A stretch of 38,404 bases of DNA from a virus (Duplodnaviria; Heunggongvirae; Uroviricota; Caudoviricetes). The notes beneath the pieces are model-generated. The model had not been told where the DNA came from. It ran no database searches and saw only the letters and a list, made by a program, of their open reading frames with translations. Location of the stretch: the IMG/VR virus record IMGVR_UViG_2541047879_000002; one strand, written 5' to 3'. Of the stretch, positions 14,077 to 38,404 are shown one piece after another. Every line of letters starts with the position of its first letter. Position 1 is the stretch's first letter. The translations under genes were made by a program, and so were the position numbers.

Positions 14077-14310
14077 ATGTCAACGAAGAACAGAACCCGC
14101 AGAACAACAATCCGCAACATCCGCTTTCCTAACCAAATGATTGAACAAATTAACATCGCTCTTGATCAAAAAGGGTCCGGGAATTTCTCAGCCTGGGTCA
14201 TTGAAGCCTGCCGCCGGAGACTGTGCTCAGAAAAAAGAGTTTCGCCTGAAGCAAACAAAGAAAAGAGTGACATTACTGAATTGCTCAGAAAACAGGTTAG
14301 ACCAGATTGA
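14077..14310 (+). CDS. Small DNA-binding-like protein of the YlcI/YnfO prophage family
   Basis: 77-aa basic AT-rich ORF next to cos, opposite orientation to late genes; family assignment from recalled DLP12/Qin gene content. Confidence 0.5.
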   Translation: MSTKNRTRRTTIRNIRFPNQMIEQINIALDQKGSGNFSAWVIEACRRRLCSEKRVSPEANKEKSDITELLRKQVRPD

Positions 14311-14351
14311 AGCAATTTAGATAATCGTGCAGACTACGCCCCTCATATCAC

Positions 14352-14777
14352 ATGGAAGGTACTACAATGGCTCAGGTTGCCATTTTTAAACAAATATTCG
14401 ATAAAGTGCGAAATAATTTAAACTATCACTGGTTTTATTCTGAACTAAAACGTCACAATGTCTCACATTACATTTACTATTTAGCCACAGAGAATATTCA
14501 TCTTGTTCTTGAAAACGATAATACGGTTTTAATAAAAGGACAGGGTAAGGTTGTAAATGTAAGATTTTCAAAAAATAAATGCCTTATAGAAGCCACCTTA
14601 AAAGGATTCAAATCAGGAGAGTTATCATTTTACGAATACAGAAAAAATCTTGCTACAGCAGGGGTTTTCAGATGGATTACAAATATCCACGAAAACAAAA
14701 GGTATTACTATACCTTTGATAATTCATTACTCTTTACTGAGAACATTCAGAACACTACACAAATATTTCCGCACTAA
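14352..14777 (+). CDS. YbcV-like DUF1398 family protein
   Basis: 141-aa ORF (alternative start MAQVAIFK) resembling the DLP12 cos-proximal protein YbcV; AT-rich. Confidence 0.65.
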
Positions 14778-15126
14778 ATCATAACGTCCGGTTTCTTCCG
14801 TGCCAGAACCGGACTCGCTGGCATGATGAAATATGTGTACCCGGTAACCCCGGTGTGCATCGTTTTTGATTATTCCCGCACACTCACGCAGAAGGAGTTC
14901 CCCGTCGGGCTACGGTCTCTGTTAATACGGGAATACGGCGACGATACAGCGCATGATGTGTCAGGCTTGAATGCCTTTATCCGTTAAAAGGGATATCAGT
15001 TAAGTTATCCCGTGCAGGGTATAAGCCATTATCAAGCCCACCCGTAGATGGGCTTTGTAATGGATAGCCGTTGCTCAGTTCTAGTAATGCTTTGATTTTT
15101 TCGATAACGCAGTTTTGCGTTTGCCA

Positions 15127-15648
15127 TCAGCACCCGATATCGAGAGTCAACTGCAGTTGCTCGCGCCAGTACTCAACATTTGCTTCAATAACCGGCTTAT
15201 CCCATCGCCAGCGAGCCATCTCTCTTGCCCCATTGCTGGCTTTTGATTTCCGGTCATCGCGAATGCGACATGCTTGCTCATATTTCTGCTGCTCAGTCAG
15301 TTCACCGCGAAGCAGACTATCAATGTGCAGGTCGCACCACACAGCAAAACGAGCATCACACCAACGGGCAAATGCAACTGAAAGTTTTGGATGTAGCCAC
15401 GTACCACCACCCCTGTCCTTTCGTGCCTTGCTGGTTTTTACATACCTCGATTGTGAGGGATGTAAAATTTGAGATTCTTTCCCGGTCAACGCTTCGTCTA
15501 AAGCACGAACGTATTCAAGCGTTTCTGCCAAACGCATCCAGTTATCAATGCGTTTCCCAAATCTCTCAGCAACACCTGTGACGTTGATCCAACCATCAGT
15601 GTTGAAACTGACAATTTCACCTTTGTAATTAAGTGGCACGATATTCAT
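15127..15648 (-). CDS. KilA-N domain-containing protein
   Basis: 173-aa ORF with KilA-N-like N-terminus, including GGTWLHPKLSVAFARW. Confidence 0.55.
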   Translation of the reverse strand: MNIVPLNYKGEIVSFNTDGWINVTGVAERFGKRIDNWMRLAETLEYVRALDEALTGKESQILHPSQSRYVKTSKARKDRGGGTWLHPKLSVAFARWCDARFAVWCDLHIDSLLRGELTEQQKYEQACRIRDDRKSKASNGAREMARWRWDKPVIEANVEYWREQLQLTLDIGC

Positions 15649-15852
15649 AACGTTTACCTACCATTTGAAATGAACCTTTGCCGCACAGGAAACCAGCCCA
15701 CCGAGGCTCGCCAGCACTAACTGGTATCCTCAAAGGCCCATTCCAAAGGGGCAGGTTCGGTGTAAAAAAAACATGCGTTGCGGTACGCATTTATTGCAAA
15801 AAAGCCCCGCATCGCGAGGCTCATTAAATGGACTTTGTGATTTGCAAAAAAA

Positions 15853-16290
15853 TTATTTCAGACATTGCGTCCTGATGTACTCCTGCAGGTAGTTAACCTG
15901 CGCGGTTATCCTGTCGATTCCACTTCGGAGACGGTAATAATTGAGTTCAGCATCTGCTGTAAGTCTTGGGCTTTCTCCATCGCCCATGCTGCTGGCTCCG
16001 GTCTTTGACTTTGCACAGGAGGCGGCGACTTGCAGCCGCTTACGCCCAGCAGAAACATCATCACGGAGACTTTCGATAGTCGCGTTAGCATCAGCAAGCT
16101 CCTTTGTATATCTGGCATCGAGTTCTGCTACGTCACGTTGACGCTTCTGCATGTCAGCGATGATGGATGTGGCTTTGTCGCGCTGTTCTTTGTAGGTCAT
16201 GGCGTTATCACGGTAATGATTAACAGCCCATGACAGGCAGACGATGATGCAGATAACCAGAGCGGAGATAATCGCAGTTACTCTGCTCAT
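15853..16290 (-). CDS. Rz: Spanin inner-membrane subunit Rz
   Basis: ORF 15853..16302; start [21 protein letters not shown] (N-terminal TM helix) overlaps the R stop. Confidence 0.85.
15906..16091 (-). CDS. Rz1: Spanin outer-membrane lipoprotein Rz1, embedded in the +1 frame of Rz
   Basis: Internal start gives [20 protein letters not shown]... with a lipobox Cys followed by a Pro-rich segment, fully inside Rz. Confidence 0.7.
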
Positions 16291-17587: not shown

Positions 17588-18670
17588 ATGAAAAAATTAA
17601 CAGTGGCAATTTCTGCTGTAGCTGCATCAGTACTGATGGCGATGTCTGCTCAGGCAGCTGAAATTTATAATAAAGACAGTAACAAGCTGGATCTGTACGG
17701 GAAAGTTAATGCTAAGCACTACTTCTCCTCTAATGATGCAGATGATGGTGATACTACTTATGCCCGTCTTGGCTTCAAAGGTGAAACCCAAATCAACGAT
17801 CAACTGACTGGTTTCGGTCAGTGGGAATATGAATTCAAAGGCAACCGCGCTGAATCTCAAGGTTCCTCCAAAGATAAAACCCGTCTTGCCTTCGCTGGCC
17901 TGAAATTCGGTGACTACGGCTCCATCGATTATGGCCGTAACTACGGTGTAGCATACGATATTGGTGCATGGACCGACGTTCTGCCAGAATTCGGTGGCGA
18001 TACCTGGACCCAAACAGATGTATTCATGACTGGTCGCACCACAGGTGTTGCAACTTATCGTAACAATGACTTCTTTGGTCTGGTTGATGGTCTGAACTTT
18101 GCTGCTCAGTATCAGGGTAAAAATGACCGCACTGACGTAACTGAAGCTAATGGTGATGGTTTCGGTTTCTCCACTACTTATGAGTATGAAGGATTCGGTG
18201 TAGGTGCAACCTATGCTAAATCTGACCGCACTAATAATCAGGTTATCTACGGTAACAACAGCCTGAATGCATCTGGTCAAAATGCTGAAGTATGGGCAGC
18301 TGGTCTGAAATATGATGCGAACAACATCTATCTGGCTACCACCTATTCTGAAACCCAGAACATGACTGTTTTTGGTAATAACCATATTGCCAACAAAGCA
18401 CAAAACTTCGAAGTAGTTGCACAATATCAGTTCGACTTCGGTCTGCGTCCGTCCGTTGCTTACCTGCAATCTAAAGGAAAAGACTTGGGTGCGTGGGGTG
18501 ATCAGGACCTGGTTGAATATATTGATGTAGGTGCAACCTATTACTTCAACAAAAATATGTCCACTTTTGTTGATTACAAAATCAACCTGATTGATAAGAG
18601 CGATTTCACGAAAGCATCTGGCGTTGCTACCGATGATATCGTTGCTGTAGGTATGGTTTACCAGTTCTAA
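17588..18670 (+). CDS. nmpC: OmpC-family general porin (NmpC/Lc type, prophage-encoded)
   Basis: 360-aa ORF with signal peptide [29 protein letters not shown] and C-terminal aromatic residue (...VYQF); between Q and S on the opposite strand. Confidence 0.9.
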
Positions 18671-19827: not shown

Positions 19828-20114
19828 GCCTTAATAACCCCCTCTTTCAGCCAGATAACCTGTGTTCTCGCCATACCTTCCAGCGCGCATTCTTTTGCAT
19901 ATGCAGCATCGACAAAATGTGTGCGGCGGTCGATTTCGTCGTGGCAGGCAGAACATGCAATGGTGGCAATCAGGTCTGGCGGTTTGGTACCGGTGCCGCA
20001 CAATCCAGTCAGCCGGATATGTGCCAGTACAGACGTTTCAGGGTTGCCATTACATACGCCAGGGATTCTTACCTGGCATTCCCGACTACGCGCTGCTTTT
20101 CTCAAATCAGCCAT
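19824..20114 (-). CDS. ybcO: YbcO-like DUF1364 putative nuclease
   Basis: ORF 19824..20153 trimmed to [23 protein letters not shown]... (96 aa), preceded by AAGGAGG; Cys-rich. Confidence 0.7.
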
Positions 20115-20277
20115 GATTCCTCCTTGCTGCCAGTCGCAACCATTTTTTATCAACCAGGCTGGCGGTATATCCGAGCAGTGTTGGTATTTCGGAAGGCTTC
20201 AGCTCCGGTTTACGCTTACGACGATCTGGTACTCTGTAGATGTGTCCGTTCATGACACGAATAAGCGGTGTAGCCAT
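20107..20277 (-). CDS. ninE: NinE-like protein
   Basis: Own translation [56 protein letters not shown] (56 aa); start overlaps the ninB stop, stop overlaps the ybcO start. Confidence 0.6.
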   Translation of the reverse strand: MATPLIRVMNGHIYRVPDRRKRKPELKPSEIPTLLGYTASLVDKKWLRLAARRNHG

Positions 20278-20732
20278 TACGCCTCCTGCTTGTCGCGGAG
20301 CAGCTGGAACTCGCAGCTCTGCGGAATAGTCAGGTGGCAGCCAATATTCACCGCCCAGGCTTCAACCTTACACAGGAAGACATACATCTCTCCGGTATCA
20401 AGATCGGAGGTATGGCGTAACGACTGGATAGTGGTGATATCACCGGTTACGACATCAACCAGGTCTTTGGTTTCATAACCGAGATATGTGTGTTTGAGAG
20501 CATCTTTTACCCAAGCTGGAGTAGCGAACGTTTTACCGCTGCTGATGAGGTATTCACTGATTTCGCTGTACCACATGTGGCTGAGTGCATTCTGGGAAAG
20601 ACTGCGTTTCTCACGCCACGGTTTAAGCACCATGCGAAAGCATTTGCCCTCCTCCAGATAAGGCTGGATCTGCCGACCGATAGCGGTGAAGTTACCGCGA
20701 TGTAATTTGATGCCATCTTGTGGGAGATTCAC
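20277..20732 (-). CDS. ninB: NinB/Orf-family recombination mediator (YbcN-like)
   Basis: 151-aa ORF containing [12 protein letters not shown], resembling the NinB core motif. Confidence 0.7.
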
Positions 20733-20919
20733 GCTTCACCTCCGCAGAGGTCAAACGCTGGATACAATATATCGCAGGTGCATTTCTGCATCTGTGGAGG
20801 GAGAAGAGAGTTTGGATTGTGTGTGCGCATAAACGTCCCCGTTTAGCGCAGAAGTCACCGGAGTTGTTCAGGCTCCGATGACATGATTATGGCGAGTTGA
20901 TTATCGCAAATCAAAGGTT

Positions 20920-21276
20920 TTAATTGTGCTTTATTCCTTCAAGCGTTGCCTTCATACCAACCAAAGAAATGTTTAGCTCTCCAACTTTCTCAGGGCTATA
21001 TAATTCAGAATGAAGCCAATATTCTGATTTATCTAAACATCTTTTAGCCAGCTCTCGATCAAAGTCTACGACTTGGGAAGACGCTTCATACCAAAGCCTA
21101 TAAAGTTTTTCTTCTTCGTTTGGGTTATTAGACTCACCACGTTTTAATTTTTCAGTATATAAAATTGTTGAATAAATCGCAGGAGTTAATCCAGTGATTG
21201 CCCTCTGCCGCAGATCGGATTTGTTTGTTATCCACCCCAACAGACGATCTCCCATCCATGTGATAATTGTATCCAT
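20920..21276 (-). CDS. Hypothetical protein, AT-rich accessory gene
   Basis: 118-aa ORF with no family I can assign; composition differs from flanking phage core. Confidence 0.45.
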   Translation of the reverse strand: MDTIITWMGDRLLGWITNKSDLRQRAITGLTPAIYSTILYTEKLKRGESNNPNEEEKLYRLWYEASSQVVDFDRELAKRCLDKSEYWLHSELYSPEKVGELNISLVGMKATLEGIKHN

Positions 21277-21737
21277 GCTTTAGCCCTTCTTAGTAAATAG
21301 TGTGTAGGGCGACTGAAGGACCGAGTTTATGCTTTTTCGCATTGCTTTCAGTTAGTACACCGGTATCGCACCGGAAACAATCCTACGGCAAATTGGTTGT
21401 CTGACCTCTCGGTTTTTCGTGCATTAACCGATACCCACTACAGTCTCGGCGAAAGCTGCACCCCCCCAGGGTGTACTGGTAGCACTCGGCACAGCCTAGC
21501 ACGCCACTTTCTTCTCACTATCCAGTCTAATTTTATCCCCTAGTCAGACACTCAGATGTAGTGCTCCGCAGCGGCATGCGGGGGAATACAAAAACTCGGA
21601 CAAAATTGGGCCCTCCTTTTTGAATCACTCGCGGGGATGTAATTATTAATACATGGAAAAAGATCTGTTTTCAAATCCAACATTATATGGTTTCAATACC
21701 ACGGGGTGGCTATGTGTTTCTCATTGTTAATTGGAAT

Positions 21738-22061
21738 CTACTGTAATCGATCCGAACGTAAATGCGGCAAAACTCGACTCCACTTATCATCCTGCCACGG
21801 CCGGAATTTTACATGTGCCGTTTCTCTGGCAAGGATTGCCTGTGCCTTATTGAGTATCTGGGGATATTCTTGCTCGATAGAAGTGAAGCGACCAGCTTCA
21901 CGATGCTCCGCAACCTGAAGAAGAGGAGTAACGTTCTGGTAGGTAATTAACATCACATTCCCTGCTCGCCATAACCAGGCGAGTGTGCAAAGTTCGTTAT
22001 CAGTGAATTGTTTTGTGATTGGGTATTGTTGAACTGCTAGAACGAGAACGCCAGCATCCAT
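21738..22061 (-). CDS. Hypothetical protein
   Basis: 107-aa ORF between the serine recombinase and a long non-coding stretch; no family assigned. Confidence 0.4.
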   Translation of the reverse strand: MDAGVLVLAVQQYPITKQFTDNELCTLAWLWRAGNVMLITYQNVTPLLQVAEHREAGRFTSIEQEYPQILNKAQAILARETAHVKFRPWQDDKWSRVLPHLRSDRLQ

Positions 22062-22172
22062 TGGCAGTCTCTATAGTAAAACCATAGCTCAGGACGCTTC
22101 GTTCAGGATAGATAATTTTATTGTACTTACCTAACTTTCTTATTATAGCACGGTTGAAAAAGTGATTATTAC

Positions 22173-23699
22173 TCAAAAATAAACCTCACCATCAACCATA
22201 TATTTGAGAGTACTTATCGCCTGCTGGGCGGATATTGTTTTCATTAAAGGATAGTGTTTAAAAACAATGCCATTCATAAAATAGATATCACAGGTTTTAT
22301 TATCTGTATTGATTATGATTTTTTCGAATGTTTTATAGGCAAGTGTACGACATAGCTCTCGCCCATTTTTACTGGTTAAGTCAATAGCATGAAAATCACC
22401 AAGTGAACTCACCGCTTTACTCTTCAAAGTTTTTAATGATACAGAAGCCCTTCGTAATTCCTTATCTAATACTCTGATTTTTTCTGCTATAGCGGTAACT
22501 TCAGGCGCAACAGATAATGCAGCAATTAAATTATTAATTTTCATCTGGAGCTCAATAATTTTCAACTCTAAAGTTTCATTAGCATCTTTCTTGTTTTCAA
22601 CTGGTTGGATTTTACTACAATTAAAAAGCAACTCATTAATGATATTATAATCAACCAAATCTCTCTTTATTGATGGCCTGTCACATCGATGCAGTCTTCT
22701 CATCGGACAAACATAATAGCCATGCAAACTTCCAGATACCGCATGAACAATCATGGTATTACCACAAGCCTCGCACTTCATAACTGTTCGAAGTAGATTT
22801 ATCAACATAGGATTTTTGCTACTATTGCTAATACCAAAAGGTGCCAACCGAATTTCCTGTACAGCGTAAAACAAATCATCTGATATGACTCTGGGATAAT
22901 AGCCAGCGATTTCACTTATTCCTTTACCTCTTGCACGATATGAAGGTACGCATATACCTATCAGAGCTTTATTCGCTAATAATTTTTCAATTACAGAAGG
23001 TCCCCATGCACTTTCTTTTCCTGAGAAATTCTTTACAGCATGATCATTTAAATACTTGGCTATTGCATTCAATGAGCGCCTTTCCATCCTGAGTTTAAAA
23101 ATTAGCTCAATAGTTTTCACCCTGTCGGGGTCTGGAACAAAAGCCGTTCTTTTGTCATCTAAGGAGAGCCATCTCGGACAAGACGCCGTCATAATCGTAC
23201 CTGATTCCAGTGCATCCTGCCGTTTTTTCTTCCATGATAATTTAACCCGACTTGACTTTATCTCGCTTTCTTCATTTGCCCTTTGTGCTATAAGTATGGC
23301 TTTTATTAATGAATATGGCTCATTCAAAGAGTCAATATTATAGACTGTATTGTCGCAAAGAGTTATAACATCAATACCGTGATTCAAAATCAATTTCAGA
23401 CGTTCAATCGCTTCACCGACTTTTTCTCTTGAAAGTCTGTCCAGACTTTCAACTAACAATGTAGTTCCTGGCAATATATAACCATGCTCTATAGCATCTA
23501 AAAATTCCGAAAAAGCTCCTGATTGTGCATGCTTTCCTTTGAATGCACTTAATCCTAAATCTTCATATGTTATGGTATCAAGATAATAATCACTATTTAC
23601 CTTTAACCATTCAGCAATAAGTCTTCTCTGTCGGTTTAATGAGTCGCCAGACATCTGACCTGGTGATGAAAATCGCATATATGCTATGGCTTTTTTCAT
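22173..23699 (-). CDS. ybcK: Large serine recombinase (YbcK-like)
   Basis: 508-aa ORF with resolvase-type N-terminus MKKAIAYMRFSSPGQ (catalytic Ser), recombinase domain and Cys-rich zinc-ribbon-like segment CEACGN...CPMRRLHRC. Confidence 0.85.
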   Translation of the reverse strand: MKKAIAYMRFSSPGQMSGDSLNRQRRLIAEWLKVNSDYYLDTITYEDLGLSAFKGKHAQSGAFSEFLDAIEHGYILPGTTLLVESLDRLSREKVGEAIERLKLILNHGIDVITLCDNTVYNIDSLNEPYSLIKAILIAQRANEESEIKSSRVKLSWKKKRQDALESGTIMTASCPRWLSLDDKRTAFVPDPDRVKTIELIFKLRMERRSLNAIAKYLNDHAVKNFSGKESAWGPSVIEKLLANKALIGICVPSYRARGKGISEIAGYYPRVISDDLFYAVQEIRLAPFGISNSSKNPMLINLLRTVMKCEACGNTMIVHAVSGSLHGYYVCPMRRLHRCDRPSIKRDLVDYNIINELLFNCSKIQPVENKKDANETLELKIIELQMKINNLIAALSVAPEVTAIAEKIRVLDKELRRASVSLKTLKSKAVSSLGDFHAIDLTSKNGRELCRTLAYKTFEKIIINTDNKTCDIYFMNGIVFKHYPLMKTISAQQAISTLKYMVDGEVYF

Positions 23700-34235: not shown

Positions 34236-34457
34236 ATGGCAGACATCATTGATTCGGCATCAGAAATCGAAGAATTACAGCGCAATACAGCAATAAAAAT
34301 GCGTCGTCTGAACTACCAGACTGTATCCGCAACTCATTGTTGTGAGTGTGGCGATCCGATAGATGAACGAAGACGCCTGGTCGTTCAGGGTTGTCGGACT
34401 TGTGCAAGTTGCCAGGAGGATCTGGAGCTTATCAGTAAACAGAGAGGTTCGAAGTGA
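34236..34457 (+). CDS. TraR/DksA-family C4 zinc-finger protein
   Basis: 73-aa ORF with CCECGDPIDERRR...CRTCASC. Confidence 0.7.
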   Translation: MADIIDSASEIEELQRNTAIKMRRLNYQTVSATHCCECGDPIDERRRLVVQGCRTCASCQEDLELISKQRGSK

Positions 34458-34667
34458 GCGAAATTAACTAGAAGCCAAAGATAAAATCATCGCTGAGCAG
34501 GAGAAAATCGCTAACGGAGAAAAGACAGTAAGTCAGTATATGAAAACCGCATGATATCATCAGATAAAAATCGGTCGTAAAGCGAAATATTAATACCAGA
34601 ACAAACGAGTCGAGGTAAATTATATTACCTCGATAAATTAACTAAAACTTGCCCGCTATATACTATA

Positions 34668-35270
34668 TCATTCAGTATCATCACGCGCGGTCTGTGCATA
34701 TGTCACTACCGCACCTAATATATTAATTTTCTTTTCAACATAGATAATATTATCGTACTCATAATTGCCATACGGATAGCAAATGCGAATATTCTCATGT
34801 AGATCGGGGTCATCCACCTCAGCTCCAGAACAACTTTTTGAACTACCGGAAGTATACCGATACGGTGCAACATAAGACGATGTCTCTCCAGGCAAAAAAT
34901 AAGTTAGTGTCGTAAGGGGTATAATCAGAAAAAATCCAGCAAATATGCACATCCCTGCATAAACCTTAAGGTATGCTGACAGACTCTTCCAGCCTCTTTG
35001 TTTTACTATCCCCTTCTTAACCCAAAACAGAGATAACAGAAAAGCTATTCCCATGCTAAACAGAATGTAATAGTGGGATATACTCTGATTAAGAAACGTG
35101 ACCCTGTAGATATCTGCCCGCCACCAGAAGAAAAGGAAAATAAAGATCAGCCCTGAAACTGTCATGCAAATCAAATAAGGATACGAATCTTTTTTCATGT
35201 TTAGCGCCCATAAAATTTTTCCTGACCCGGACAAATTTACCATCCATTTTTTGCGCAGAAAATAGCTCAT
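34668..35270 (-). CDS. Hypothetical integral membrane protein, AT-rich accessory gene on the opposite strand
   Basis: 200-aa ORF (alternative start MKKDSYPY) with about three hydrophobic helices and a C-terminal soluble part. Confidence 0.6.
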   Translation of the reverse strand: MSYFLRKKWMVNLSGSGKILWALNMKKDSYPYLICMTVSGLIFIFLFFWWRADIYRVTFLNQSISHYYILFSMGIAFLLSLFWVKKGIVKQRGWKSLSAYLKVYAGMCIFAGFFLIIPLTTLTYFLPGETSSYVAPYRYTSGSSKSCSGAEVDDPDLHENIRICYPYGNYEYDNIIYVEKKINILGAVVTYAQTARDDTE

Positions 35271-35512
35271 TACTTACTGTACAATAATACACAAAATTGC
35301 GTAAATTTTTTGCATGGATTTTAGCTCTTTCAGCCGACATTTAAGGGGTAAATAGCATTTCCTAAAAGCAACTGCACCAACCCAACAGAATGGGCTACCG
35401 CTTACGTTGAGAGCAAAAAAGTGTATAGCAGCAATGAACAGCATCCTCGCACTGACGAGGATTTCTTTTATCTGAACTCGCTACGGCGGGTTTTGTTTTA
35501 TGGAGATGATAA

Positions 35513-35680
35513 ATGCACTTCCGAGTCACAGGTGAATGGAATGGAGAACCATTCAACAGAGTTATCGAAGCCGAGAACATCAGCGACTGCTATGACCACT
35601 GGATGCTGTGGGCGCAGATAGCACATGCAGACGTAACCAATATTCGAATTGAAGAACTGAAAGAACACCAAGCCGCCTGA
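35513..35680 (+). CDS. Small conserved ORF upstream of xis (lambda orf55-like by position)
   Basis: Own translation MHFRVTGEWNGEPFNRVIEAENISDCYDHWMLWAQIAHADVTNIRIEELKEHQAA; a different frame from ORF-track entry 35421..35621; hairpin gccgcc/ggcggc plus T-run follows. Confidence 0.55.
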   Translation: MHFRVTGEWNGEPFNRVIEAENISDCYDHWMLWAQIAHADVTNIRIEELKEHQAA

Positions 35681-35719
35681 TGGCGGTTTTTTCTTGCGTG
35701 TAATTGCGGAGACTTTGCG

Positions 35720-35938
35720 ATGTACTTGACACTTCAGGAGTGGAACGCACGCCAGCGACGCCCAAGAAGCCTTGAAACAGTTCGTCGATGGGTACGCGAG
35801 TGCAGGATATTCCCTCCTCCGGTTAAGGATGGAAGAGAGTATCTGTTCCACGAATCAGCGGTAAAGGTTGACTTAAATCGACCAGTAACAGGTAGCCTTT
35901 TGAAGAGGATCAGAAATGGGAAGAAGGCGAAGTCATGA
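35720..35938 (+). CDS. xis: Excisionase Xis
   Basis: 72-aa ORF MYLTLQEWNARQRRPRSLETVRRWVRECRIFPPPVKDGREYLF... Confidence 0.95.
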   Translation: MYLTLQEWNARQRRPRSLETVRRWVRECRIFPPPVKDGREYLFHESAVKVDLNRPVTGSLLKRIRNGKKAKS

Positions 35939-36986
35939 GCGCCGGGATTTACCCCCTAACCTTTATATAAGAAACAATGGATATTACTGCTACAGGGACC
36001 CAAGGACGGGTAAAGAGTTTGGATTAGGCAGAGACAGGCGAATCGCAATCACTGAAGCCATACAGGCCAACATTGAGTTATTTTCAGGACACAAACACAA
36101 GCCTCTGACAGCGAGAATCAACAGTGATAATTCCGTTACGTTACATTCATGGCTTGATCGCTACGAAAAAATCCTGGCCAGCAGAGGAATCAAGCAGAAG
36201 ACACTCATAAATTACATGAGCAAAATTAAAGCAATAAGGAGGGGTCTGCCTGATGCTCCACTTGAAGACATCACCACAAAAGAAATTGCGGCAATGCTCA
36301 ATGGATACATAGACGAGGGCAAGGCGGCGTCAGCCAAGTTAATCAGATCAACACTGAGCGATGCATTCCGAGAGGCAATAGCTGAAGGCCATATAACAAC
36401 AAACCCTGTCGCTGCCACTCGCGCAGCAAAATCAGAGGTAAGGAGATCAAGACTTACGGCTGACGAATACCTGAAAATTTATCAAGCAGCAGAATCATCA
36501 CCATGTTGGCTCAGACTTGCAATGGAACTGGCTGTTGTTACCGGGCAACGAGTTGGTGATTTATGCGAAATGAAGTGGTCTGATATCGTAGATGGATATC
36601 TTTATGTCGAGCAAAGCAAAACAGGCGTAAAAATTGCCATCCCAACAACATTGCATGTTGATGCTCTCGGGATATCAATGAAGGAAACACTTGATAAATG
36701 CAAAGAGATTCTTGGCGGAGAAACCATAATTGCATCTACTCGTCGTGAACCGCTTTCATCCGGCACAGTATCAAGGTATTTTATGCGCGCACGAAAAGCA
36801 TCAGGTCTTTCCTTCGAAGGGGATCCGCCTACCTTTCACGAGTTGCGCAGTTTGTCTGCAAGACTCTATGAGAAGCAGATAAGCGATAAGTTTGCTCAAC
36901 ATCTTCTCGGGCATAAGTCGGACACCATGGCATCACAGTATCGTGATGACAGAGGCAGGGAGTGGGACAAAATTGAAATCAAATAA
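35916..36986 (+). CDS. int: Integrase Int (tyrosine recombinase)
   Basis: 356-aa ORF overlapping xis 3' end; C-terminal catalytic region ...HELRSLSARLY...LLGHKSDTMASQYRDD. Confidence 0.95.
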   Translation: MGRRRSHERRDLPPNLYIRNNGYYCYRDPRTGKEFGLGRDRRIAITEAIQANIELFSGHKHKPLTARINSDNSVTLHSWLDRYEKILASRGIKQKTLINYMSKIKAIRRGLPDAPLEDITTKEIAAMLNGYIDEGKAASAKLIRSTLSDAFREAIAEGHITTNPVAATRAAKSEVRRSRLTADEYLKIYQAAESSPCWLRLAMELAVVTGQRVGDLCEMKWSDIVDGYLYVEQSKTGVKIAIPTTLHVDALGISMKETLDKCKEILGGETIIASTRREPLSSGTVSRYFMRARKASGLSFEGDPPTFHELRSLSARLYEKQISDKFAQHLLGHKSDTMASQYRDDRGREWDKIEIK

Positions 36987-37059
36987 TGATTTTATTTTGA
37001 CTGATAGTGACCTGTTCGTTGCAACAAATTGATAAGCAATGCTTTTTTATAATGCCAAC

Positions 37060-37074
37060 TTAGTATAAAAAAGC
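37060..37074. other. attL: att core (attL junction, phage arm left, host arm right)
   Basis: ttagtataaaaaagc is the reverse complement of the lambda core GCTTTTTTATACTAA; upstream atgccaactt is phage-arm-like and downstream sequence leads into ybhC. Confidence 0.8.
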
Positions 37075-37120
37075 AGGCTTCAACGGATTCATTTTTCTAT
37101 TTCATAGCCCGGAGCAACCT

Positions 37121-38404
37121 GTGAACACATTTTCAGTTTCCCGTCTGGCGCTGGCATTGGCTTTTGGCGTGACGCTGACCGCCTGTAGCTCAACCCCGCC
37201 CGATCAACGTCCTTCTGATCAAACCGCGCCTGGTACCTCTTCTCGCCCGATTCTGTCGGCAAAAGAAGCGCAGAATTTCGATGCTCAACACTATTTTGCA
37301 TCCCTGACACCAGGTGCTGCAGCGTGGAATCCTTCCCCGATTACCCTGCCTGCGCAACCTGACTTTGTTGTCGGCCCGGCGGGCACTCAAGGTGTAACGC
37401 ATACCACGATTCAGGCGGCGGTAGATGCGGCAATTATCAAGCGTACCAACAAGCGCCAGTATATTGCCGTGATGCCTGGTGAGTATCAGGGAACGGTATA
37501 TGTCCCTGCCGCTCCGGGTGGAATTACTCTGTACGGTACAGGTGAAAAACCGATTGATGTGAAGATTGGGCTTTCCCTTGATGGTGGCATGAGCCCTGCC
37601 GACTGGCGTCACGACGTCAACCCGCGCGGCAAATATATGCCAGGTAAACCAGCGTGGTATATGTACGATAGCTGCCAGAGCAAACGCAGCGACAGTATCG
37701 GTGTTCTCTGCTCTGCGGTCTTCTGGTCACAAAACAATGGCCTGCAACTGCAAAATCTGACCATCGAAAACACGCTGGGCGATAGCGTAGATGCAGCTAA
37801 CCATCCGGCGGTGGCACTGCGTACTGATGGTGACCAGGTACAGATTAACAACGTTAACATTCTCGGTCGTCAGAACACCTTCTTTGTCACCAACAGCGGT
37901 GTGCAGAACCGTCTGGAAACCAACCGTCAGCCGCGTACGCTGGTGACCAACAGCTACATTGAAGGGGATGTGGATATCGTTTCTGGTCGCGGCGCAGTGG
38001 TGTTCGATAACACCGAATTCCGCGTGGTGAACTCACGTACTCAGCAAGAAGCGTATGTGTTTGCACCGGCTACGCTGTACAACATTTACTACGGTTTCCT
38101 CGCCGTAAACAGCCGTTTCAATGCTTTCGGTGATGGTGTGGCGCAACTGGGCCGCTCGCTGGATGTTGATGCCAATACCAACGGTCAGGTGGTGATCCGT
38201 GATAGCGCCATCAACGAAGGTTTTAACACGGCTAAACCGTGGGCCGATGCGGTGATCTCTAATCGTCCGTTTGCGGGTAATACCGGCAGCGTAGATGATA
38301 ACGACGAAATACAGCGCAATCTGAATGACACTAACTACAACCGCATGTGGGAATACAATAACCGCGGCGTGGGTAGTAAAGTGGTTGCAGAGGCGAAGAA
38401 GTAA
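37121..38404 (+). CDS. ybhC: Host outer-membrane lipoprotein YbhC (pectinesterase-like)
   Basis: 427-aa ORF with lipoprotein signal MNTFSVSRLALALAFGVTLTACSS; in E. coli this gene flanks the lambda attachment site. Confidence 0.85.
   Translation: MNTFSVSRLALALAFGVTLTACSSTPPDQRPSDQTAPGTSSRPILSAKEAQNFDAQHYFASLTPGAAAWNPSPITLPAQPDFVVGPAGTQGVTHTTIQAAVDAAIIKRTNKRQYIAVMPGEYQGTVYVPAAPGGITLYGTGEKPIDVKIGLSLDGGMSPADWRHDVNPRGKYMPGKPAWYMYDSCQSKRSDSIGVLCSAVFWSQNNGLQLQNLTIENTLGDSVDAANHPAVALRTDGDQVQINNVNILGRQNTFFVTNSGVQNRLETNRQPRTLVTNSYIEGDVDIVSGRGAVVFDNTEFRVVNSRTQQEAYVFAPATLYNIYYGFLAVNSRFNAFGDGVAQLGRSLDVDANTNGQVVIRDSAINEGFNTAKPWADAVISNRPFAGNTGSVDDNDEIQRNLNDTNYNRMWEYNNRGVGSKVVAEAKK

Follow-up and report, generated by a model that had tools for sequence, protein, structure and literature searches.

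A probable structured RNA gene in an exchangeable slot of enterobacterial lambdoid prophages

The window analysed here, the whole 38,404-nucleotide stretch of IMG/VR virus record IMGVR_UViG_2541047879_000002, is a segment of an Escherichia coli chromosome that contains a near-complete lambdoid prophage of the DLP12 type. Along the minus strand, replication genes, emrE and ybcK (a serine recombinase, 22173-23699) are followed by the region considered in this report, then by orf33 (a homologue of ylcH) and ybcN (ninB, 20277-20732), 3′ of which come ninE, ybcO, rusA, ylcG and quuD (Q). Beyond Q lie an intact ompC-like porin gene, lysis genes and then head and tail genes. An original prediction, made from the letters of this DNA, had described the region between ybcK and ninB as a block of variable cargo, in which two open reading frames (ORFs) of unknown family flank a non-coding stretch that could carry a structured RNA. 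The two ORFs, here called orf118 and orf107 after their lengths in amino acids (aa), are present as described, both on the minus strand (the GC content of orf118 is 0.38), and the gap between them, 21277-21737, holds no ORF of 60 aa or more, the longest being of 48, 43 and 39 aa. Within this gap we delimited a conserved core of 332 nt that is very likely to be a real structured RNA gene (Table 1).

Table 1. Coordinates of features between ybcK and ybcN in the window. Paired helix strands are separated by a slash.
Feature	Position	Strand	Description
Conserved junction to ninB	20729-20915	-	orf33 (ylcH homologue, 20729-20830) and promoter-like site (20886-20914)
orf118	20920-21276	-	Conserved hypothetical protein, phrog_12412; predicted four-helix bundle
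Spacer from RNA to orf118 ATG	21277-21306	-	30 nt, no terminator; Shine-Dalgarno-like GAAGGG
Probable structured RNA core	21307-21638	-	332 nt; alignment column c = coordinate 21639 - c (alignments A2, A4 and A5)
3′ domain	21311-21527	-	Columns 112-328; helices 7-17, about ten helices
P16	21370-21380/21355-21364	-	Among the best-supported helices
P11	21442-21450/21427-21435	-	Among the best-supported helices; hairpin, columns 189-212
P10	21469-21475/21459-21465	-	Among the best-supported helices
P8	21500-21505/21478-21484	-	Among the best-supported helices
P7	21506-21511/21451-21456	-	Among the best-supported helices
Candidate pseudoknot	21543-21548/21400-21405	-	UCUGAC (columns 91-96) with GUCAGA (columns 234-239); 8-nt perfect inverted repeat I8
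5′ domain	21535-21638	-	Columns 1-104; P1 (AUCCCC/GGGGAU) closes two arms; helices 1-5 96-100% paired
Predicted sigma-70-type promoter	21645-21674	-	-35 TTGAAA (21674-21669), 18-nt spacer, -10 ATTAAT (21650-21645)
orf107	21738-22061	-	C-terminal fragment of a Bro-N/P22_AR_C antirepressor-like gene

Copies of the core were gathered from viral and metagenome collections by scanning with its invariant blocks and by fetching contigs that encode homologues of orf118. This gave about 100 loci, with about 36 distinct cores in about eight lineages; core identity across the loci ranges from 66% to 100%, and the flanking genes differ on both sides. Invariant stretches alternate with freely differing segments, indels are nearly absent, and similarity stops abruptly at both edges. 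Some 60% of the columns are invariant, many of them within junctions and loops. The gap is present in 159 of 5426 complete E. coli genomes, in exactly one copy each, and RefSeq annotates nothing under the RNA in the records listed for these 159 genomes. Profile hidden Markov model searches recovered all known copies and a degenerate pattern for the 5′ arm recovered a third lineage, while a search for distant relatives turned up the RNA in Klebsiella phage Kp4856-1 and a second E. coli prophage, with identities of about 77-83% and different neighbours in each. The only isolated phages with the RNA are four in number (Turner, IdasGreatGrand, Kp4856-1 and Kp4862-1). The RNA is also found in Enterobacter bugandensis and Obesumbacterium proteus, for a total of at least four enterobacterial genera. 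Viral scans with two more conserved blocks produced no true new members (loci L081-L111 failed the profile), and a scan of GTDB representative genomes with an invariant 18-mer gave chance matches only, so no species representative in that collection carries the RNA.

Structure in this stretch is supported by comparison of the copies. Folding of 20 distinct copies with RNAalifold gave a consensus of -78.7 kcal/mol with 83 pairs, of which 13 show compensatory double changes. The final alignment, A5, holds 28 distinct copies and was analysed under a hand-refined structure of 96 pairs, with two kinds of control: the same structure with its pairing partners slid by 1-3 columns, and 500 shuffles. 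Standard pairs are formed in 96.2% of the A5 cells, against 32-47% in the slid controls and a shuffle mean of 90.3%; 25 pairs are changed on both sides, against 3-8 when slid and 16.8 ± 1.7 when shuffled; and 163 cells carry double changes, against 13-24 when slid and a shuffle mean of 62.6. In each of the three measures none of the 500 shuffles reached the observed value. Across the alignments, 96-98% of cells are paired, compared with 32-48% when slid, and 13-25 pairs are doubly changed, compared with 1-8. The consensus folding energy of -70.1 lies well below that of column-shuffled alignments (-44.6 ± 4.9; z = -5.25), that of the reverse complement (-46.8) is at the null level, and invariant G-U pairs likewise indicate the minus strand. 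Compensatory pairing beyond the controls and strand-specific folding, the generic marks of a conserved structured RNA, are thus both present, in few independent lineages, and the suggestion that the non-coding stretch holds a structured RNA is borne out.

The features from which that suggestion had been drawn fared differently. The inverted repeats cited as signs of structure exist, to within 1 nt (I7, 21354-21361/21470-21477; I11, 21362-21368/21429-21435), as does a GC-rich hairpin string, ccgcagcggcatgcggg, at 21566-21582. As evidence of structure the repeats fail: the stretch has 9 perfect 7-mer inverted repeats where shuffled sequence has 6.2 ± 3.3 (65 of 300 shuffles had 9 or more), and the cited pairings are non-complementary in other lineages and fall outside the structure supported by covariation. 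The minimum free energy of the single sequence is likewise ordinary (z = -0.65 on the minus strand, +0.07 on the plus strand).

The supported fold has two domains. In the 5′ domain, compensatory changes occur at columns 28/39 and 73/84, and in the first of its two arms (columns 12-57) an invariant GGAGG precedes an invariant UUG by 8 nt. The 3′ domain is closed by a long-range helix, GAYUGG/CCARUC, which pairs 21522-21527 with 21311-21316 (columns 112-117 with 323-328); within it, P11 occurs with at least seven different stem sequences, every one of which pairs. A 6-bp pseudoknot probably links the two domains. In the most divergent lineage (L253-L255) its C96 is changed to U and its G234 to A together, which keeps the pseudoknot and breaks an alternative local hairpin; because this co-change is one evolutionary event, it falls short of proving the pseudoknot, which we regard as probable. 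The 5′ side of the 3′-domain closing helix contains UGGAUA (21524-21519), and the same six letters recur in the start of orf118, AUGGAUAC (21274-21267). The 3′ strand of that helix could in principle pair with either copy, which could be a switch or a coincidence.

Three further observations concern individual copies or parts of the RNA. In one copy (L045, 3066-3411) the sequence from about column 305 onwards is unrelated and the 3′ strands of both closing helices are lost; the RNA seems to have been broken here by recombination, and the copy is probably dead. The annotation of phage IdasGreatGrand (PP925829.1) places hypothetical proteins of 39 and 43 aa inside the RNA (L250, 3151-3270 and 3320-3451), and these calls are probably spurious because a coding signal is absent. 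On the Alteromonas mediterranea plasmid pAMDE1 (NC_019394.1, 98825-98870; L252, 2501-2546), 46 nt correspond to columns 12-57, the first arm with its GGAGG and UUG, with identity at 37 of 43 nt (BLAST E = 6e-4 in 7.3 Gb; 26.7 bits with nhmmer). They lie in 1.4 kb that has no listed genes and adjoins a tyrosine recombinase (integrase) gene, and an 8-bp complement (GAGGTGGC ... GCCACCTC) brackets about 170 nt around the matching arm. The rest of that plasmid region is unrelated to the RNA and has no Rfam match, and a search of the plasmid collection gave no relatives of the stretch beyond four near-identical plasmids. From this likeness, the arm may be a more widely shared module.

Signals that could delimit a transcript lie close to both ends of the core. 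Each of the 31 distinct upstream variants has a -10-like hexamer (TTTAAT, TTAAAT, ATTAAT or TCTAAT) at positions -12 to -7 relative to the first conserved base, and a -35-like hexamer (TTGAAA, TTGAAT, TTGATA or TTGTAT) 17-18 nt further upstream; the spacer sequences differ. The predicted transcript start in the window is the A at 21638, the A of AUCCCC. At the other end, canonical intrinsic terminators occur in 13 of the 30 distinct 3′ junctions; they begin 6-9 nt past the last helix, and their stems come in two compensating versions, CCGCC/GGCGG and CCACC/GGUGG. Another 15 junctions, including that of the window, have no terminator and an orf118 ATG 31-35 nt after the RNA; and the remaining 2 are degenerate. 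In one locus (L061) a partly palindromic AACCATA-N5-TATGGTT overlaps the -35 region. Control of the RNA promoter by immunity operators was considered and rejected; the operators are unlike each other.

What follows the RNA depends on the lineage. In the window it is orf118, which is predicted to be co-transcribed with the RNA. This ORF has no Pfam or PADLOC match and belongs to a PHROG family of unknown function, so that part of the original prediction stands. Its AlphaFold2 model (mean confidence score, pLDDT, 78) has four helices and finds no fold match in the PDB below an E-value of 0.1; identification as a HEPN toxin was rejected, the fold matches being weak (E about 1) and a conserved Rx4-6H motif being absent. 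The six further homologues of 69-78% identity that could be placed, from Escherichia, Enterobacter bugandensis and Obesumbacterium proteus, all begin about 33 nt after the RNA, and two at 50% identity are found elsewhere, without it. In a common E. coli sublineage (L005 and relatives; clusters P0016-P0018) orf118 is cut to 66 aa beside an RNA that is 98% identical and of full length; one cluster of such truncated proteins has 51 member sequences. The other lineages have the RNA and its terminator and then mutually unrelated genes, none of known function, which encode a 178-191-aa protein with hydrophobic ends, proteins of 183, 95 and 177 aa, and a DUF1367 protein. Genes upstream of the RNA vary too.

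The region is accordingly a true exchange site with the RNA as one recurrent occupant: across 75 viral contigs that encode a NinB with 97% or more identity to that of the window, the 1.5 kb upstream of NinB fall into at least 15 sequence types, and 18 of the 75 contigs carry the RNA. When 61 NinB-linked loci without the RNA were searched with nhmmer, no weaker relatives appeared at E ≤ 10. E. coli K-12 has ybcL and ybcM between ybcK and ylcH-ybcN, in agreement with the statement in the original prediction that the DLP12 slot holds other genes and with its view of the slot as exchangeable. K-12 MG1655 has an unannotated gap of about 465 bp of its own directly after ybcK (L169, 2630-3093, between ybcK and ybcL); the RNA of this window has no match in K-12.

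Taken as a whole, the region is probably best explained as a promoter-driven moron whose payload is a structured non-coding RNA, active in trans in its folded form, and we hold this view with moderate confidence. The RNA would be transcribed from the minus strand, in the same direction as the early-right (nin) genes, from a sigma-70-type promoter that would set the transcript start at 21638 and, we infer, fire in the lysogen. Its 332-nt core would fold into a 5′ domain closed by P1 and a 3′ domain closed by the long-range helix, with the pseudoknot probably tying the two together. In most lineages an intrinsic terminator within about 10 nt would yield a discrete RNA of about 360 nt, and promoter, RNA payload and terminator would together make up the moron unit; in the lineage of the window, where the terminator is absent, the same RNA would double as the 5′ leader of the orf118 mRNA. 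The folded molecule would then bind a protein or a small ligand, as scaffold or decoy, rather than act as a short base-pairing small RNA (sRNA). Action in trans is the most likely mode, held with much lower confidence than the existence of the RNA gene, and we favour it because most junction and loop nucleotides are invariant, because the downstream genes are interchangeable, because the terminator varies and no part of the core covaries with it, and because the RNA outlives orf118.

Several points weigh against this explanation. The copies fall into only about eight independent lineages, which are mosaics formed by recombination. An unguided scan over every pair of columns returned many spurious 'covarying' pairs and was not used, so support for the fold rests on whole helices, slid-partner controls and strand asymmetry rather than on single pairs; the number of further pair types, one of two robust shuffle measures, was not significant. 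The promoter, start site and 3′ end of the RNA are predictions, and the promoter of the window (TTGAAA-18-ATTAAT) is a weak match that a consensus scan did not flag. In the window's lineage no convincing intrinsic terminator was found from the RNA to Q, which is awkward for a promoter that is constitutive in the lysogen. Our analyses point to no partner or target of the RNA, and an ORF always starts about 30-110 nt downstream on the same strand, an arrangement that fits a cis-acting leader as well.

Such a leader, riboswitch-like or an attenuator, is the main rival: it would sense a signal and set the amount of transcription or translation that the cargo gene directly downstream receives, through terminator read-through in most lineages and through masking of the orf118 ribosome-binding site in the window. 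The succession of promoter, long structured RNA, terminator (where there is one) and an ORF with a Shine-Dalgarno sequence at that distance recurs in every lineage, and in the lineage with the 191-aa cargo the terminator leaves the cargo no space for a promoter of its own. Local folds predict weak pairing of the RNA tail, GCC(C), with the GG-rich ribosome-binding motif in 7 of 9 orf118-type variants, with one compensatory pair (GCCCU/AGGGC versus GCCCA/UGGGU), and the repeat of UGGAUA in the start region of orf118 would suit a leader too. These pairings are, however, short and long-looped, and would be expected of any G-rich motif beside a C-rich tail. Riboswitch regulons are functionally coherent, whereas the genes that would be regulated here encode mutually unrelated proteins; the terminator stem changes from CCGCC to CCACC beside a near-identical core, and no antiterminator partner covarying with the stem was found; and orf118 decays while the RNA is kept. 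On balance we consider a cis-acting leader unlikely, if a serious contender. Less likely again is that the RNA and the adjacent protein form one module, with the RNA as partner, antitoxin-like regulator or assembly scaffold for orf118, in the manner of the structured RNAs found ahead of prophage AbiF or ToxN effectors. All seven distinct orf118 homologues of at least 69% identity, from three genera, follow the RNA by about 33 nt with no terminator, and the divergence of the RNA parallels that of the protein, both having reached about 70% identity; prophage-borne pairs of RNA and effector are also reported to have precedent (PMC12373285). Yet the RNA also stands before at least six other downstream genes, with a terminator between, homologues of orf118 at 50% identity occur without it, and the protein is truncated in a common sublineage. 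Nor does orf118 have a PADLOC match, a toxin-like fold or the Rx4-6H motif, or the RNA the tandem repeats of ToxI (only inverted repeats were searched for).

Two other accounts are very improbable. By analogy with put of phage HK022, the RNA could be a processive antitermination element: while nascent, it would modify the very polymerase transcribing it, which would then read through the next terminator downstream and others of the nin region towards Q. Its position in the nin region upstream of Q and the sequence of promoter, structured RNA, intrinsic terminator and early genes to Q reproduce the put layout, and the palindrome over the -35 region in L061 could be an operator that silences the promoter in lysogens. 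The likeness is one of layout only: the RNA has about five times the length of put and no demonstrable similarity to it, the palindrome is imperfect in most lineages and unlike the immunity operators of this prophage, and a constitutive version would turn on late genes in lysogens. The stretch might, alternatively, not be an RNA gene at all and be instead a decayed pseudogene, a gene for a small peptide or a linker for recombination at the DNA level. In favour of a peptide, the GGAGG, a perfect Shine-Dalgarno-like motif, stands 8 nt before the invariant UUG, which opens a 19-codon ORF in 24 of 25 variants, and the Alteromonas arm opens a 12-codon ORF with a similar start (M-T-K-F-L-N); in favour of a linker, phage genomes are mosaic, with conserved junction sequences. 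The small ORF, however, varies by codon phase as 5/5/4, with third positions that are invariant and first positions that vary, one of them compensated in a helix (28/39), and codon 13 is an in-frame stop in one of the common variants. With no codon bias and this stop, the small-peptide gene was rejected. Codon periodicity is absent from the core as a whole as well (variable columns 44/41/47 by codon phase), and pieces from all six frames gave no Pfam match at E ≤ 1; the decay of a pseudogene, which the original prediction had named as its own refutation and which would have left frame-shifted protein homology, was rejected with it, there being none and the structure being conserved. Compensatory changes, G-U pairs and a strand-asymmetric folding energy are unexpected for a DNA linker.

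A number of narrower ideas were also examined. A mimic of a CRISPR repeat was dropped: the E. coli type I-E repeat shares CCCCGCG...GGGGAUAAA with P1, and the AUAAA part is not conserved across lineages. A decoy for nut sites of the boxA/boxB kind is unsupported, as GCUCUU is part of a helix that covaries and the GAAAAA loop, of 6 nt, caps a 4-bp stem, and by inspection there are too few GGA motifs for a CsrA sponge. As for an Hfq-dependent base-pairing sRNA, many lineages have a terminator with a U-tail, and no seed-like target was found in the window, the only sequence searched for one; complementarity there did not exceed chance, the one 14-mer lying in a non-conserved hairpin (about 0.09 expected). 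Among the neighbours in the loci inspected no reverse transcriptase was found, as a retron or defence-associated reverse transcriptase system would have.

Known RNA families did not account for the core. The 4227 covariance models of Rfam 15 matched nothing in 20000-23000 at E ≤ 1, nothing in 21250-21720 even at E ≤ 10 and nothing anywhere in the window at the gathering threshold, a tRNA positive control being detected, and searches of the full-text literature by keyword and by sequence string found no description of the RNA. Judged from these comparisons, it is outside every described family: a prophage-borne structured RNA in a moron-like unit. With the morons of lambdoid phages (bor and lom of lambda, those of HK97) it shares a predicted promoter of its own (hexamers in 31 of 31 variants), in most lineages a predicted terminator of its own (13 of 30 junctions, none of them in the lineage of the window) and a slot between conserved phage genes that is filled differently in prophages otherwise nearly identical; it differs in that the payload is a 332-nt structured RNA and not a protein, and in that its expression in lysogens is presumed. 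Like ROOL and GOLLD it is a long, multi-helix prophage RNA supported by covariation, with much invariant sequence outside helices, but it is about half their size, matches no Rfam model, belongs to lambdoid phages of Enterobacterales and adjoins no tRNA genes. An origin in E. coli lambdoid prophages, and in most lineages a terminator hairpin with a U-tract, are common to it and to DicF, IpeX, AgvB/AsxR and the Pas sRNAs, in contrast to which it is 3-6 times longer, with 17 helices, a probable pseudoknot and no seed-like target in the window. The RNAs treated in the available passages of a 2026 survey of prophage Pas sRNAs are other, much smaller ones, and the present RNA is absent from those discussed there. 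Finally, the abiF motif and ToxI/ToxN resemble it as conserved RNAs directly upstream of, and (here by prediction) co-transcribed with, a small prophage protein; the core of the present RNA by contrast shows no tandem repeats (the repeat search covered inverted ones only), and the protein downstream, which lacks a Pfam or PADLOC match and a nuclease-like fold, is interchangeable, sometimes decayed and neither Abi_2 nor ToxN.

Few genetic systems have been studied as closely as E. coli and its lambdoid prophages, yet none of the 159 complete E. coli genomes with the 332-nt RNA has it annotated. Bacterial RNAs of such size and with a complex fold are few, and several have proved to be ribozymes, riboswitches or scaffolds of ribonucleoproteins. 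It is conceivable, though we think it doubtful, that the RNA represents a new class of mid-sized, complex-folded RNA 'moron' in enterobacterial lambda-like prophages, with two domains linked through a pseudoknot and a biochemical role of its own. If so, it may act on the transcription or translation machinery, by factor-independent antitermination or by capture of ribosomes through the GGAGG arm, or serve as a decoy when phages compete with one another or meet host defences, and the 46-nt arm shared with the Alteromonas plasmid would be a widespread functional module. The system is genetically tractable, in that isolated temperate phages infecting E. coli carry the RNA. More generally, the slots that hold morons in prophages may hold RNA payloads which annotation centred on proteins, and finders of defence systems, would miss.

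The second ORF beside the gap is not unknown cargo, as had been proposed for both. The 107-aa product of orf107 carries a P22_AR_C domain (PF10548; Pfam E = 1.1e-15), matches the C-terminal parts of Ant PHROGs and shares 85% identity with residues 100-202 of a Bro-N/P22_AR_C protein, 202 aa long, which phage IdasGreatGrand has intact. With antirepressors of this type it shares the C-terminal P22_AR_C domain; the N-terminal Bro-N domain, present in the IdasGreatGrand protein, is missing. Because it aligns only to that part of its intact relative, orf107 is a fragment and not a full member of the family: by this comparison, it is what remains of an antirepressor-like gene that was truncated close to the ybcK junction, and is better annotated as a truncated antirepressor.

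On the ninB side, the junction is 92% identical to phage 82, and on this comparison it is outside the variable cargo. Just past orf118, at 20854-20914, it contains a promoter-like TTGATT-17-CATAAT together with the inverted repeat CCGGAG...CTCCGG. In the record of phage 82 these are labelled, ahead of orf33-ninB, as putative -35/-10 signals and as a 'possible regulator-binding site'.

Elsewhere in the window, the porin gene downstream of Q (17588-18670) encodes an intact OmpC-like protein of 360 aa at the place where DLP12 of K-12 has nmpC disrupted by IS5. Two segments, 14240-16173 and 34421-38404, do not align to the prophage of strain KSC207, which is elsewhere 97.6-99.8% identical to the window; the right-hand one replaces the part of KSC207 that leads to intD and tRNA-Arg, and the window holds no tRNA gene. 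Relative to KSC207 there is also a 1.26-kb insertion at 29368-30625, with minus-strand ORFs of 288 and 102 aa in a layout like that of the IS3 family, located where KSC207 annotates a frameshifted serine/threonine kinase gene.

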